From a virus (Duplodnaviria; Heunggongvirae; Uroviricota; Caudoviricetes): a stretch of DNA of 34,668 nucleotides. Each line of letters starts with the position of its first letter. The stretch's first letter is position 1. Made by a program: the position numbers and the translations under genes. The DNA lies in IMG/VR virus record IMGVR_UViG_2737471865_000001, positions 1 through 34,668 of that record; one strand, given 5' to 3'. Under the pieces are notes generated by a model, which was not told the DNA's origin, did no database searches, and saw only the letters and a program-made list of their open reading frames with translations. Below are positions 1 to 34,668 of the stretch, one piece after another.

Positions 1-93
1 ATAAATGGTGTCCCCTGCAGACATCTACTTGAAGCGGCAGGGGATTGATTAGAATGGTATTTTTTAGATGTGAGAAATATTTTACCCGCTATT

Positions 94-294
94 TTACCCA
101 TTGGCGCGGCTTAAGAGCTTATTTTTGAATTCACAATGGTCACGATATAACCATCTTGCTCGCCCGTGGATAACTTTGGCTTTTGGCAGGTCGCCGGACT
201 TAATCCGGTCATAGATGAAGGTTTTACCGAAGCCAGTATCAGCCATGATGAATTTCAAATCAACCAGTGAATCAGGCTGTAGTTCGTGTTGCAT
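94..294 (-). CDS. AlpA/Xis-family excisionase-like DNA-binding protein
   Basis: 66-aa ORF; the pattern L..L..I...TGF.K..IY..IK.G.LP......GR.RW is typical of AlpA/excisionase winged-helix proteins. It sits at the left end of a minus-strand early operon, where xis is expected next to int (int itself lies beyond the window start). Confidence 0.6.
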   Translation of the reverse strand: MQHELQPDSLVDLKFIMADTGFGKTFIYDRIKSGDLPKAKVIHGRARWLYRDHCEFKNKLLSRANG

Positions 295-335
295 GAGTGC
301 TATCTCCGAATAGGGAATCGAACCTGCAAATCAGG

Positions 336-360
336 CAATAAAAAACCGCCATCAGGCGGC
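336..360 (-). terminator. rho-independent terminator (minus strand)
   Basis: Hairpin CCGCC-atca-GGCGG at 346..359, followed on the minus strand by a T-run (plus-strand A-run 338..345). Confidence 0.5.
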
Positions 361-519
361 TTGGTGTTCTTTCAGTTCTTCAATTCGAATATTGGTTACG
401 TCTGCATGCGCTATCTGCGCCCATATCATCCAGTGGTTATAGCAGTCGTTGATGTCCTCTGCTTCGATAACTCTGTTGAATGGTTCTCCATTCCATTCTC
501 CTGTGACTCGGAAGTGCAT
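352..519 (-). CDS. hypothetical small protein (55 aa), not in the ORF track
   Basis: My own translation of the minus strand: MHFRVTGEWNGEPFNRVIEAEDINDCYNHWMIWAQIAHADVTNIRIEELKEHQAA. ATG at 517..519 preceded by GGAG; stop lies inside the terminator hairpin. Below the track's length cutoff. Confidence 0.35.
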   Translation of the reverse strand: MHFRVTGEWNGEPFNRVIEAEDINDCYNHWMIWAQIAHADVTNIRIEELKEHQAA

Positions 520-7328: not shown

Positions 7329-7478
7329 TGACAAAACAACTCAGTCCTTACCAGGACAAAATTCACAAACACATACTACGTGATCGCTTCCTGTCCAGCT
7401 TCAAGCAGCCTGGTCGATTCCGGGCTGAGTTGGAAAAAGTGAAGCTGATGCAGAAGGAGAAAGGTCATGAGTAATCTT
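7329..7478 (+). CDS. hypothetical small protein (49 aa), not in the ORF track
   Basis: My translation: [55 protein letters not shown]; its stop overlaps the O start. Confidence 0.35.
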
Positions 7479-8327
7479 GCAACCGTAACACATTTAAGGC
7501 CTTCACAACGGCCTGTGGAGCGTCGTGTGGCAGAAGTTGAAGATGGTTATACCCGTCTTGCAAATGCCCTGTATGAAGAGCTTATCGGCGCAGATTTAAC
7601 GAAAAATCAGAGCAAGGTTGCCCACGCCATATGCCGTAAAACATACGGCTACGGTAAAAAGATGGATCGCATCTCTGATAGTCAGTTAGCTCAAATTACC
7701 AGGCTGCCAAGACAGAAGGTAAACAAGGCCAAGAATGAGCTTATCGCGATGAAGGTTATCCTTCGCGAAGGCCAGCAAATCGGGCCTAACAAGAACATCG
7801 AGGAATGGCAAATCGAAGGGTGTCACTACTCTGGTGATAATGTCACTGCATTGGTGACAAAAACTGTCACCAAAACGGTGACAGCGCTGTCACCAAAACA
7901 GGGACACACAAAAGAAACTATTACAAAAGAAAAAAGAAATAATAAAAACACTATGTCCGAAAGTGTTCGGACGGAGTGTGAAAAATCACATGACCGTCAC
8001 GAAGAAACCGACAAGGCATTCGAGGAAATATTCTGGTGTGCAGGCATGCGGAAAGCCGGGAAGAAAAACGCAGCTTCGGCATTCAGAACACAGTTCAGGG
8101 AATGGCGTAAAACTACCAGGGGTACGGCAAGCGAGTTTGCCACGATGCTGGCAGAAGACATCGCATGCAGGAATGGTAAGCAGTTCGGATTCGACAGGTT
8201 GTTACCATCGAGCTATCTGAACGGTCAGCGCTGGAACGACGAGAAGCCAGAAACTATTCAACCACAATCCAAACCATCATCCGCAATCACCGTATCGAAA
8301 ACTGGCTACGTGTTTTTCGACAGGTGA
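7467..8327 (+). CDS. O: replication initiator, lambda O-like N-terminal domain
   Basis: N-terminal [55 protein letters not shown] is the lambda O / Phage_rep_O DNA-binding domain. Internal linker [20 protein letters not shown] is encoded by iteron DNA. Confidence 0.85.
7819..7955. repeat. origin of replication: seven alternating GGTGACA/TGTCACC iteron motifs plus adjacent AT-rich tract, inside the O gene
   Basis: Motif copies at 7821, 7833, 7841, 7853, 7865, 7878 and 7889 at roughly 11-12 bp spacing, followed by an A/T-rich tract 7896..7955 (aaagaaactattacaaaagaaaaaagaaataataaaaac). Same architecture as ori-lambda. Confidence 0.7.
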
Positions 8328-31302: not shown

Positions 31303-33455
31303 GTTTACCAGAGGGGTTTGTTCTGGATGAACAGCCTGATAACTCACAACTTCCTGATGGCTTTGTGCTTGATTCCCAACCAGAACAGCAGCAATCTCCT
31401 TTGGTTTCACCAGAGGAAAACTCCAGACAGGAAAATGTTGTTAATAATGCTAACGGTTTCGACCGTTTTATGTATGGCGTTCTCAGTGGATTGATGGATG
31501 TTGGTAAAGGTGTTGGCCTGTTTCAGGATATGACACCAGAAGAGCAAGCCGCAATTCAGTCTCTACAGCAGAAGTTAGCGGCAAAACCATCAACCGCACA
31601 AGATGTTGGTGAGTTTGTTGGACAAGCAGCGCCATTTGTTAGTGGTGGTGGGATTATTTCTCAGGTTCCGAAAGGGGCGGCAAGGCTGGCTGCCGCCGCA
31701 GGGCTTGGTGCGGTTGAAGGTGGTGTTGTTGCTAACGGAACCGGTGGCAATGTAACTACAGGGGCGGCTATAGGTGCTGCCGCTGGTCCAATTGCTGAAT
31801 TGGCATCTCCAGTGATTAGCAAAGCAGCCAGTGCGGTTACGAAGAGGTTTAGGCCTCCATCGGCAGAAATGTCTCAGGCATCTGAACTTAGTGGAATGGC
31901 GAGGGTTGCAACGAAAGCTACAGATGTGAATCCAATAACAGGAAACAGATCTGGTTTAAATGCTCTCGCGGAAGCTGTTTCACCAGATGATTCTGTGCTA
32001 CAGGCCGCCCGCAATCTTGGGATGGAGGATGCCTTAACTCCCGGCATGTACTCCAGCAACCCTTCTTACCGCGCGTTTGAAAATGCTTTAGCTGCAACCC
32101 CAGGGAATAAACTGTTCCACGCACAGCGAGAGGCCATTAGTAGGCTTGGAGAGCAGGCAGATAAATTTATTAATGATTTTGGTGGGAGCGTTGATAAGGA
32201 CTTTATCAATCAAAAGGTCAAAAGCTCTTATGAGGAGTTAAGATCAAACCTGAAGCGCCAAGAAGACACTCTATACAATCAAATTAGAGCAAAAATTCCA
32301 ACAAGAGCTACCGTAGATACCACCCATACCACTAACGCCATTGAGGATATTGCAGATGATGTCGGTGGGCTAGAAAAACTAAAATCGCTATATCCTCAAC
32401 TGTCAAAGACCTTGGAACAAATAGACCCAAACACCGCCCCGACTTATGGTCTTCTTGATGCAGTTCGACGGCAGGTTGGAAGGGCTCTTGGCAAAGAGAT
32501 GGATAAAGGGCCATATAGCGGCATCGACGCTCGGCACCTTGGAATTATTGAAAGCGCACTGATACAAGATCAGGGAGCCGCTGCTGCCAAATATGGTGCA
32601 GAGGATACATGGAATTTAGCTAGAGAGATCGGGAGAAAGAGATTCGCAGTGCAGGCAGCCGCTGTTCAAAATCTTGGCAGAGACTTGGATAAAGGAATAG
32701 TGCCGCAATTACAGCAAGCTATCGTCGATATGTCTCAAGGAAAGGGCGGTGATTTCCGTCGCCTAGTTTCAAATCTTCCTGATGACATGGTGCAACCAGC
32801 TGTTGCCACCGCAATGAATAGGGCTTTCACTACGTTCGCTAAATCTCCCGGGCAGTCACTTGGTGTTCCTGGATTTGTTAAGTGGTATGGAGGGCTATCA
32901 AGAAACAAATCAAATATGCAGGCATTGAGCCGGGCAATTGGCTATCAGGCTACGCGTAGGTTGAGAAACATCTATGAGGTGGCTTCTGGCATGCAAAGGG
33001 TGGGCAGCGAGAAGGTGTATTCCTCCTCTCAAATTGACCGGATGATGAATCAGTTCGCAGGAGAGAAGGGAATGCTTGGGCGTATATATGGAATAGGAAA
33101 AGACGTGGCTAAAGCAGAAGGGCTAACCACAGCCATCGGAGCGCCTGGAGCCGGTACGGCAGGGGTACTCTTTAGCCTCCTCCGTTCTGGTAAAAATTCA
33201 AGAATGGCTGCCGCTGATGAATTAATAGCATCTCCGGCTTTTAAAAATCTCTCAAAAAGGATTGCCGCAGGCCACGCCAGCACCCCAGCATCTAGGAAAT
33301 CGGTGGATGCTTCAATGCAGAAAGTGAAACCATATAGGGATTGGGTAAATACGCTATCAGCGGACGAGAAGAAAAATCTAGCCCGCGTTGGTATTGTCGC
33401 TTTTCTCAGTAGTAACGATTCTTTGCCCACAGAGCAACAAGCAGGGCAACAATAA
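31287..33455 (+). CDS. ejection / DNA-transfer protein, gp16-like
   Basis: 722-aa ORF in the gp16 position (longer than the ~600 aa I recall for P22 gp16); Ala/Gly-rich central region. Confidence 0.7.
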
Positions 33456-33500
33456 TCCAACCGACTGTTACCATATTAACCTCCAGATAGCCATGGATGG

Positions 33501-33800
33501 CTATTCTGACATCCTTTTTAATTTATTGTATGACTCTATAGAATCTGTGCACAACTTCATGAACTCTTGAAGTGACATTCCTAGGCGAGAAATTTCCGTA
33601 TTCAAAAAACGTTCAATAAATTCATCTCCGCCGGGCATCTGTGTTGCTTCTTGAAAAGCAAACATTTGTTTAAATGTTCCACACATACCAGCAACTTTAG
33701 CTGTAACTAACATGTCGTTAGCAAATTTCAGATCCTTATCTTGCGATTGTGCAAGACCACTAATTAGAAAACAGAATGCACCTATAACCCATCGCTTCAC
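33501..33800 (-). CDS. small secreted (signal-peptide) protein of unknown function at the sieA-position locus
   Basis: 99 aa; N-terminal signal peptide MKRWVIGAFCFLISGLAQS; mature ~80-aa part with two Cys; GGGAGA RBS; gene is visibly AT-rich. Confidence 0.55.
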   Translation of the reverse strand: MKRWVIGAFCFLISGLAQSQDKDLKFANDMLVTAKVAGMCGTFKQMFAFQEATQMPGGDEFIERFLNTEISRLGMSLQEFMKLCTDSIESYNKLKRMSE

Positions 33801-33825
33801 ACCAATCTCCCACTAAGGTAATAAT

Positions 33826-34011
33826 ATGACCATAGAAGAACGCCTGAACAACATTGAGTTGAATCAAACCCTGCTTGACCAGCGACTTTCAGATCTTGAG
33901 CTTAAAGATCTAGATGCGCAAATATCGGAAGCAGAAGCCAAGCTCTCCAGCCTAAACCACCGCAAGAAGCAAATCCGCAACAGAATTACTCAGGGACGCG
34001 GAAGCTGTTGA
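33826..34011 (+). CDS. hypothetical small coiled-coil protein (61 aa)
   Basis: ORF with AAGG RBS; charged, leucine-heptad-like; its start region lies within 30 bp of the divergent secreted-protein gene start, so one of the two may not be expressed as drawn. Confidence 0.3.
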   Translation: MTIEERLNNIELNQTLLDQRLSDLELKDLDAQISEAEAKLSSLNHRKKQIRNRITQGRGSC

Positions 34012-34195
34012 GGTGGGATGCAAGGTCTCTATCGTTAAAATCAAGGCTGCTAATCATTTCATTGTAAATAGCGTTTTTATCTTCCATTGGCAGTCTTGAG
34101 TAAACCAGACACAGAGCATATTTCAGGGAGTTTAGCTCTTTCTCTAGCTCTTCCTTGCTTGACGTTTTTGACTTAATAAACTGTTTTTTATTCAT
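33986..34195 (-). CDS. hypothetical small protein (69 aa) downstream of the mnt-like gene
   Basis: ORF whose start overlaps the mnt-like stop (operon-like coupling); AT-rich. Confidence 0.4.
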   Translation of the reverse strand: MNKKQFIKSKTSSKEELEKELNSLKYALCLVYSRLPMEDKNAIYNEMISSLDFNDRDLASHLNSFRVPE

Positions 34196-34443
34196 TTTGT
34201 ATCCTTACCATACATGGTTTTCAGCGTCTCAACATCGTGTTCAAGATCTATCAATCGTGATGCTATAGTTGCAAGGTCTAGTGCTTGAATGTGTTTATTT
34301 TTTTCTGTCCACGCTTCAAGTGCCGCGACCATCTCAGCATTTAATGAACGAGAATTAGCCTCAGCCAGTTCAATAAGACGTTCCTTTATCTCTACAGGAA
34401 GCCTCAGATTCACTTGAGGGTTTTTGTACTTACGATCAGACAT
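34192..34443 (-). CDS. mnt: Mnt-like ribbon-helix-helix repressor
   Basis: 83 aa from ATG at 34441..34443 (the track start is an upstream GTG). KNPQVNLRLPVEIKERLIELAEANSRSLNAEMVAAL fits the Arc/Mnt RHH fold, with a C-terminal helical oligomerisation tail; same length as P22 Mnt. Confidence 0.7.
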   Translation of the reverse strand: MSDRKYKNPQVNLRLPVEIKERLIELAEANSRSLNAEMVAALEAWTEKNKHIQALDLATIASRLIDLEHDVETLKTMYGKDTK

Positions 34444-34481
34444 CGGCACATCCTGAATAATTTTTTACCACAGGATATGTA

Positions 34482-34518
34482 GGTATCTATTGACTATCAA
34501 TGCGTACCTAAATACTAT
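34482..34518. promoter_or_regulatory. immI-like divergent promoter/operator region
   Basis: Plus-strand promoter TTGACT (34490..34495), 17-nt spacer, TACTAT (34513..34518) directed at the arc-like gene. The -35 is embedded in a 29-bp imperfect palindrome TAGGTA-tct-ATTGA-cta-TCAAT-gcg-TACCTA (34482..34510). ATGCGTACC occurs twice 22 bp apart. Confidence 0.6.
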
Positions 34519-34548
34519 GTATGCGTACCACATACAACGGAGAATGCA

Positions 34549-34668
34549 ATGAAGGTAAAAACACTGCGTATGCCAGAGAAGTTAGAAAAAATCCTTGAAG
34601 AGAAAGCAAAGGAAGAGTGTCGCTCATTTAGCGCAGAAGTAATTAAACGGTGTTCTTGCCCCCTAATT
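34549..34668 (+). CDS. arc: Arc-like RHH repressor, 5' partial (runs off the window end)
   Basis: My translation MKVKTLRMPEKLEKILEEKAKEECRSFSAEVIKR... shows the Arc-type pattern (basic beta-strand then ...RS.SAE/NSEI...); GGAG RBS; divergent from the mnt-like gene. Confidence 0.5.
   Translation, partial: MKVKTLRMPEKLEKILEEKAKEECRSFSAEVIKRCSCPLI

Follow-up and report, generated by a model that had tools for sequence, protein, structure and literature searches.

The spacer between the mnt-like and arc-like genes

The stretch of DNA analysed here (34,668 nucleotides, positions 1 to 34,668 of the IMG/VR virus record IMGVR_UViG_2737471865_000001, Caudoviricetes; hereafter the window) carries near its right end two short, divergently transcribed genes for ribbon-helix-helix proteins, one resembling the Mnt and the other the Arc repressor of phage P22. 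The 105 bp that separate them (34444-34548) probably constitute the bidirectional promoter-operator region of an immI-type (mnt / arc-ant) secondary immunity module in a P22-like (Lederbergvirus) prophage of the CUS-3 type. Positions 34208-34650, covering the mnt-like gene, the spacer and the arc-like gene, are 96.8% identical to coliphage CUS-3 (CP000711, Lederbergvirus), and this block was found in 198 of 5426 complete E. coli genomes, with relatives spread across Enterobacterales. The module is sited between the gene-16-type ejection protein and tailspike genes: upstream in the window lies the gene-16-type ejection protein gene, a 722-amino-acid open reading frame (ORF) at the position of the CUS-3 'DNA transfer protein', and the tailspike gene was seen in CUS-3 and E. 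coli strain 165, the window stopping short of it. The copy in strain 165 is 99.8% identical and continues through the Mnt-like gene, the Arc-like gene (46 amino acids), a 73-amino-acid ORF, the antirepressor gene ant and the tailspike gene. CUS-3 likewise retains ant. In the window the sequence parts from the arc-like gene at 34651, and its last position is 34668. Given this location and the synteny with ant and tailspike, the region corresponds to the "ant moron" or immunity I of Villafane et al. (PMC2629481).

Two scans of IMG/VR, one with the Mnt-like and one with the Arc-like protein as query, yielded 160 loci, from which the anatomy of the region was read across 28 distinct cores and identity to the window was calculated over 16 diverged lineages. 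The features of the locus are listed below, with P(+) and P(-) denoting the candidate promoters that would read towards the Arc-like and Mnt-like genes, respectively.

34192-34443, minus strand: Mnt-like ribbon-helix-helix gene, 83 amino acids, ribbon PQVNLRLP (Pfam PF03869, 40.1 bits against a cut-off of 20.4, E = 3e-10)
34450-34455 / 34471-34476, minus strand: inverted repeat ATCCTG / CAGGAT, a hairpin in mnt-sense RNA that would bury the Mnt-like Shine-Dalgarno
Complement of 34451-34454, minus strand: Shine-Dalgarno AGGA of the Mnt-like gene, 7 nt before the ATG at 34443
34477->34472, minus strand: predicted P(-) -10 hexamer TATCCT, the Pmnt equivalent, 17-bp spacer (promoter scan)
34480-34489, unstranded: box A, TAGGTATCTA, in the P(-) spacer; consensus T-R-S-R-T-A-Y-C-T-A; 0.90 conserved
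34480-34510, unstranded: imperfect palindrome TAGGTA-tct-ATTGA-cta-TCAAT-gcg-TACCTA, 31 bp, 11/15 symmetric pairs, comprising box A, the two -35 hexamers and box B
34490-34495, plus strand: predicted P(+) -35 hexamer TTGACT, the Pant equivalent (promoter scan)
34500->34495, minus strand: predicted P(-) -35 hexamer TTGATA (promoter scan); base 34495 is common to the P(+) -35
34501-34510, unstranded: box B, TGCGTACCTA, in the P(+) spacer; consensus T-R-C-G-T-A-C-C-T-A; five positions invariant in 28 lineages
34513-34518, plus strand: predicted P(+) -10 hexamer TACTAT, 17-bp spacer (promoter scan); 0.93 conserved, TAATAT in several lineages
34518-34536, unstranded: second palindrome TGTATG-cgtacca-CATACA (TGTATGcgtaccaCATACA), 7/9 pairs, enclosing box C
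34522-34531, unstranded: box C, TGCGTACCAC, over the predicted P(+) start; consensus T-G-C-R-T-A-C-C-W-M; 21 bp from box B
34539-34542, plus strand: Shine-Dalgarno GGAG of the Arc-like gene, 6 nt before its ATG
34549-34650, plus strand: Arc-like ribbon-helix-helix gene, first 34 codons from the ATG at 34549, ribbon KVKTLRMP (Pfam Arc on the fragment)

The names Mnt-like and Arc-like had been given to the flanking genes in an initial annotation made from the sequence alone, and both are borne out by the Pfam Arc match and by the best solved relatives. For the Mnt-like protein the closest of these is P22 Mnt (1mnt, E = 3e-5), with no resemblance to the C-terminal part of Mnt past residue 52, and a gene of identical length is labelled 'Arc family DNA-binding protein' in RefSeq. 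The RefSeq accessions of the pair are WP_001283827.1 (Mnt-like) and WP_001386205.1 (full-length Arc-like). The 40-amino-acid Arc-like fragment in the window scores 18.8 bits against Pfam Arc, just below the cut-off of 20.4, and the full 46-amino-acid form (CUS-3, E. coli 165), also labelled 'Arc family' in RefSeq, has P22 Arc as its best solved relative (E ~1e-3). Residues P9, Q10, N12, L13, R14 and L15 of the Mnt-like protein are invariant in 36 relatives, which come from many Enterobacterales genera and extend down to 49% identity. Its ribbon has the Gln/Asn/Arg triad of Arc and over PQVNLR is identical to the Arc F10V variant; the Mnt-type recognition residues (Arg2, His6, Asn8 and Arg10) are absent from PQVNLRLP. 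An AlphaFold2 (AF2) model of the monomer, with a mean predicted local distance difference test score (pLDDT) of 77.8, places helices at residues 17-29, 34-48 and 57-79, the last having 23 residues with a block-mean pLDDT of ~83-92 over most of its length. This C-terminal helix has a heptad-like leucine pattern (LDLAxxAxRLxxLExEVxxLK) and is compatible with oligomerisation in the manner of Mnt; the protein may well oligomerise through it.

Both promoters proposed in the initial annotation were recovered by the promoter scan: the plus-strand TTGACT/TACTAT pair reading into the Arc-like gene, its -35 overlapped by the palindrome, and the divergent promoter for the Mnt-like gene (TTGATA-17-TATCCT, 34500->34472). 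The AGGA ribosome-binding site of the Mnt-like gene (34451-54) is likewise present. P(+) and P(-) lie back-to-back, and their -35 hexamers abut with one base pair in common, so that the block TTGACTATCAA (34490-34500), nearly invariant at 0.98 conserved, reads TTGACT rightward and TTGATA leftward. At the P(-) -10 the register TANNNT fits 27 of the 28 diverged lineages, only those three positions being invariant (variants include TATCCT, TATTCT, TAATCT, TAATAT, TACTAT and others), and this comparative evidence gives good backing to a real -10 at 34477->72. Reading promoter activity from the sequence, we infer that P(+) would be strong and P(-) weak, with predicted starts near 34525 (+) and 34465 (-). 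A P22-style overlapping P(-), with a -10 of GATAGT at 34498->93, was considered and is less likely, given its poor -35 and the loss of the -10 match in two lineages (GCTAGT in L084 and GAATGT in L071); were it used, the hairpin listed above would fall within the mnt leader.

The palindrome over the -35 hexamers is real, as had been proposed, and its length and position required correction: it spans 31 bp at 34480-34510 rather than 29 bp at 34482-34510. Similarly, ATGCGTACC does occur twice, two helical turns apart, at 34500-34508 and 34521-34529 and nowhere else in the window on either strand, with a start-to-start spacing of 21 bp and not 22. The second palindrome at 34518-34536, a third box at 34480-89 and the inverted repeat 34450-55/34471-76 had been missed. 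The three boxes stand in exact 21-bp register, and would therefore present themselves on one face of the helix; their overall consensus is T-R-C-R-T-A-C-C-T-A with a GTAC core, and within the whole window, immC region included, this consensus occurs at 34501 and 34522 only. The near self-complementarity of each box around GTAC leaves little to choose between an inverted and a direct reading of A and B: over the 28 lineages the direct reading was better in 8, equal in 16 and worse in 4 (means of 6.5/10 inverted and 7.0/10 direct). Among more distant lineages the direct reading wins, with TGCGTACCTA, for example, at both boxes. Alternatives at box A in other lineages are TGCGTACCTA, TACATACCTA and TGCATACCTA, and the outer arm TAGGTA was present in 12 of 28 lineages by our own count from the printed box A sequences.

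The symmetry of the larger palindrome averages 10.1/15 pairs over the 28 lineages. By chance 0.012 31-mers with at least 11/15 pairs would be expected in 105 bp, and the whole 34.7-kb window has 11 such positions against ~4 expected. A repeat finder returned both an extended inverted repeat (34476-93 / 34497-514, 78% complementary) and a tandem 21-nt direct repeat (34483-503 / 34504-524, 71% identical). The second palindrome is not rare on its own, with 61 equals in the window; its exact 19-mer recurs in 11 of 28 lineages, 7/9 pairs are retained in 14, and its outer arms TGTAT/ATACA appear in most lineages when the printed 19-mers are compared by eye. The extended 39-mer at 34476-34514 has 14/19 pairs and one equal elsewhere in the window. 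That equal belongs to a group of TGTCACC / GGTGACA repeats at 7820-7900, oriented both ways inside a 286-amino-acid ORF (7467-8327); the group looks like replication-origin iterons within an O-type initiator gene.

Conservation of the core and occurrence of the module

The decisive evidence that these features are real is conservation, which points to purifying selection on a 60-bp core. Identity of the core (34478-34537) to the window is 0.90 over the 16 diverged lineages, compared with third codon positions, at 0.51 and 0.46 in the two genes, and with the flanking spacer (0.57 at 34444-71, 0.36 at 34538-48). This constraint is on par with that at first and second codon positions of the Mnt-like N-terminus (0.92). 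It extends to the promoter spacers, which hold boxes A and B, and to the start-site region, which holds box C (0.87-0.90 conserved). Moreover, the core GTAGGTATCTATTGACTATCAATGCGTACCTAAATACTATGTATGCGTACCACATACA is intact where the Mnt-like protein is just ~49-60% identical and the sequence on either side has been replaced.

The inverted repeat in the putative mnt leader lies outside the conserved core. In the lineage of the window the leader folds at -13.1 kcal/mol (z = -3.6), with z-scores from -3.65 to +0.42 in 13 lineages; RNAalifold returned zero consensus pairs for the leader across lineages, and several diverged lineages show analogous, out-of-register pairings of different sequence. Because the 5' arm of the hairpin overlaps the proposed P(-) -10, its transcription would require a start farther upstream or read-through RNA. 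Given the lack of a consensus structure and the mixed z-scores, the hairpin was left out of the mechanism, and a search of 33400-34668 for known RNA families in Rfam gave nothing credible. A second, terminator-like hairpin with a T-run (CCTCAGattcacTTGAGG GTTTTT) on the plus strand at 34402-34419, antisense within the PQVNLR codons of the Mnt-like gene, is not conserved among relatives and probably arose by chance.

Comparison with the relatives revealed additional variation around the module. Villafane et al. 2008 describe the CUS-3 and HS-1 types as apparently lacking arc (PMC2629481); contrary to that account, CUS-3 holds an unannotated 46-amino-acid Arc-family ORF (L001 4342-4482) inside its 'bsq2 boundary sequence', which also contains a 67-amino-acid CxxC...CxxC ORF (L001 4479-4682). 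The same stretch of CUS-3 (L001 3707-4682) further carries tandem mnt genes, one of P22 type (MARDDPHFNFRMP) and one of PQVNLRLP type. In E. coli 165 the sar antisense RNA (L003 4254-4320, minus strand; Rfam RF00262, 82.6 bits) abuts ant directly upstream, indicating that the RNA layer of immI is kept in the CUS-3-type variant; the corresponding position falls beyond the end of the window. The 73-amino-acid ORF between arc and sar is unrelated to the Cys-rich ORF of CUS-3. Phage Kapi1 (L002 5042-5475) shares the genes left of the locus at 98.5% and carries a different Mnt/Arc pair, 32 bp apart, which suggests that immI cassettes are swapped as units among near-identical phages.

The copy in the window departs from all relatives at its end. 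Every match stops at 34650, and the last 18 nt (34651-34668, TGTTCTTGCCCCCTAATT) are unlike every relative, continuing the arc-like frame, which stays open to the window's edge, as ...KR|CSCPLI. The junction of arc with TGTTCTTGCCCCCTAATT was not found in complete E. coli genomes, GTDB genomes or IMG/VR, and the bare 18-mer gave three chance-level matches, one falling within a gene for an Enterobacter membrane protein. Two readings fit: disruption of the arc-like gene after codon 34 in this element, or an end of the sequence at a junction created by assembly or rearrangement. At the opposite end, positions 1-60 open with TGGTGTCCCCTGCAG, resembling the 3' end of a tRNA gene (an attachment-site, att, core), and ARAGORN detected no complete tRNA in window positions 1-400; CUS-3 uses argW.

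Candidate repressor sites and competing explanations

Ribbon-helix-helix dimers recognise tetrameric core boxes that can be either direct or inverted repeats, and dimer-dimer contacts fix how far apart these stand (PMC3413123). In P22, Mnt represses arc and ant, and Arc represses mnt and moderates ant (PMC11016777). In the mechanism we propose for the locus described here, P(+) would read into the Arc-like gene and, in intact relatives, on into the small ORF and ant, and P(-) would read into the Mnt-like gene. Dimers would insert their beta-ribbons at the boxes, occupation of B and C shutting the ant promoter P(+) and occupation of A shutting the mnt promoter P(-). Silencing of P(+) would at the same time free P(-), because the promoters abut and their -35 hexamers share one base pair. 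With the Mnt-like protein as reader of the boxes, B and C would be occupied in the prophage and A at higher protein concentration, as autoregulation; after infection the Arc-like protein, expressed from P(+), would act back on this region. A bolder reading, possible if doubtful, is that one invariant Mnt-like repressor, bearing an Arc ribbon on another scaffold, reads the three asymmetric direct GTAC boxes, spaced by exactly two helical turns, as a graded three-site switch over the back-to-back promoters, B and C silencing ant and A autoregulating mnt. A leader hairpin blocking mnt translation might, on that reading, add a further layer.

That it is the Mnt-like protein that reads the boxes is the pairing of protein and site we prefer, on circumstantial grounds: an invariant ribbon (PQVNLRL) would be paired with invariant boxes, whereas the Arc-like ribbons vary (KVKTLRMP, KKVKTIRMP, SPSSVRFP and EPVSVRMP) above essentially unchanged boxes. 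No type-specific column was seen when Arc-like ribbon type was compared with the operator columns. The assignment also leans on the 23-residue C-terminal helix of the AF2 model, as in tetrameric Mnt.

Half-site spacing in this protein family is ~11 bp for Arc and Mnt, 8 bp for MetJ and 7 bp for omega. Several observations weigh against the proposed mechanism and assignment. A centre-to-centre spacing of 21 bp is unusual for ribbon-helix-helix sites, and the boxes are asymmetric direct repeats, while a two-fold symmetric tetramer would favour inverted sites. In lineages L061-L064 box C is lost or replaced, leaving GTATGCATAC, with the Mnt-like ribbon unchanged. The Mnt-like protein has the Arc triad, yet its candidate sites bear no likeness to the Arc operator, so prediction from ribbon to site is unreliable here. 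No natural partner swap was detected, the IMG/VR scan with the Arc-like protein giving just loci that also hold a PQVNLR Mnt-like gene. The promoter scan of the 1.27-kb region returned 3 sites against 3.1 expected from shuffles, a number not above chance. The module may also be non-functional in this particular element, with the arc-like gene cut after codon 34 and ant not seen. Finally, our literature search found no experimental study of CUS-3-type operators (binding, footprint, start-site or reporter), and PDB entry 9PIO concerns Arc merely as a ClpXP substrate.

An arrangement that keeps the P22 positions is unlikely in our estimation, and is the best-surviving alternative: the 31-bp palindrome would be the operator of the Arc-like protein, acting on both promoters, 34518-36 that of the Mnt-like protein, acting on P(+) only, and the shared 9-mer a relic of a 21-bp duplication. 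The positions do correspond, since P22 has Oarc within the Pant spacer and Omnt on the Pant start, and both elements here are palindromic, as symmetric dimers of dimers would lead one to expect. The 71% identity of the 21-nt tandem repeat is consistent with such a duplication. Lineages L061-L064 again bear on the matter, altering the second palindrome and carrying the Arc-like variant KKVKTIRMP; the correlation is opposite to the assignment this arrangement makes, yet it shows each of the two sites able to evolve on its own. Boxes B and C nevertheless share an exact 9-mer and a family-wide consensus, and ribbons as unlike as QVNLRL and VKTLRM would hardly need one sequence. The variation of Arc-like ribbons above unvarying boxes A and B, and an outer arm conserved in fewer than half of the lineages, likewise speak against the P22-style arrangement.

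It is highly improbable that the 31-bp palindrome holds no operator, its symmetry being a by-product of back-to-back promoters and the repressors acting elsewhere or not at all. In its favour, the inner arms TTGA/TCAA coincide exactly with the two -35 hexamers, so that no operator is needed to explain that part, and the box cores are AT-rich and nearly self-complementary, which gives some symmetry for free. Nonetheless, sigma-70 promoters do not normally constrain spacer sequences, whereas the spacers and start-site region here are conserved like first and second codon positions, the boxes recur at exact 21-bp phase, and each flanking gene codes for a DNA-binding repressor, which requires a site. 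Least probable is a core bound by another regulator (LexA, the main phage repressor or a host factor) or acting as RNA: several phage antirepressors are LexA-controlled and the leader hairpin is stable at 34450-76, but 34444-34548 contains no LexA box (CTGT-N8-ACAG) even with up to one mismatch allowed, Rfam offers nothing credible there, the hairpin is without consensus across lineages and lies outside the core, and the box motif does not recur elsewhere in the prophage, immC region included.

Relation to P22 immI and other repressor systems

In P22, as here, divergent Mnt-family and Arc-family genes stand on either side of a short spacer (90 bp, compared with 105 bp in the window), the site follows the gene-16-type ejection protein gene, and sar, ant and tailspike come next in close relatives. 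The candidate promoters here are also alike in kind, with a strong one towards arc (TTGAC.-17-TA.TAT) and a weak one towards mnt. Geometry is where the two differ. P22 Pant (TTGACA-17-TATATT; L004 2794-2822, plus strand) and Pmnt (2827-2799, minus strand) overlap fully, each -10 lying over the other's -35 and the starts ~37 bp apart, whereas the promoters here stand back-to-back. Similarly, in P22 Oarc (ATGATAGAAGCACTCTACTAT, 21 bp, TAGA boxes) fills the shared spacer and Omnt, a 17-bp palindrome with core AGGTCCACGGTGGACCT, covers the Pant start, giving two unlike palindromic operators, where the window has a single palindrome and three boxes that resemble one another and recur every 21 bp. 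When P22 Oarc, Omnt and Arc half-sites were slid over both strands, the best matches (12/21 and 9/17) were no better than shuffles, and TAGA-N5-TCTA and GGTCCAC motifs were not found in the region. The initial annotation was therefore right that the operator sequences differ from those of P22; its appeal to P22 immI logic stands for location and gene pair and fails for promoter geometry and operator layout. Its further claim of a distinct repressor specificity had been read from the DNA only, and finds no support in a Mnt-like protein with the same Gln/Asn/Arg triad as P22 Arc.

The proteins diverge from their P22 counterparts in a corresponding manner, the Mnt-like ribbon being of Arc type (PQVNLR) where P22 Mnt has HFNFRM, and the Arc-like protein having 46-48 amino acids and the ribbon VKTLRM; unlike P22, relatives also carry an extra small ORF between arc and ant. 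Taken together, homology and synteny make it plausible that the general logic is P22-like, with a strong ant-side and a weak mnt-side promoter and two ribbon-helix-helix repressors, while the implementation differs. The CUS-3 'ant moron' (PMC2629481) is essentially the same DNA, the differences being that CUS-3 adds a tandem P22-type mnt and that the window copy is broken after arc codon 34.

Beyond the P22 group, the boxes recall those of ParG, omega, MetJ and CopG, in which short core boxes, direct or inverted, are read by beta-ribbons cooperatively across a promoter (PMC3413123). Arrays in those systems have a 7-9 bp spacing, compared with 21 bp between the well-conserved boxes here, and the comparison is one at the level of the fold. 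By analogy only, three related sites over two divergent promoters also resemble lambda OR, and such an arrangement would allow graded repression together with autoregulation; the lambda protein differs in its helix-turn-helix fold. If the three-site reading is true, it would describe a ribbon-helix-helix geometry that departs from that of Arc and Mnt, with their inverted half-sites 11 bp apart, and one triad would specify an unrelated site. With an Arc triad alongside an unrelated site, the locus is nature's own test case for the extent to which DNA targets can be predicted from ribbon residues.

The immI modules decide whether a superinfecting relative can switch on a P22-like prophage, or the prophage's module a resident one, and operator specificity therefore defines immunity groups among common E. 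coli and Salmonella prophages. The variant described here is common, present in ~4% of complete E. coli genomes, with an arc gene that the literature records as missing. Overall, it is a conserved and widespread variant of the well-known immI system that does not overturn current understanding of it, and in which the same regulatory logic would have been rebuilt on a different promoter geometry.

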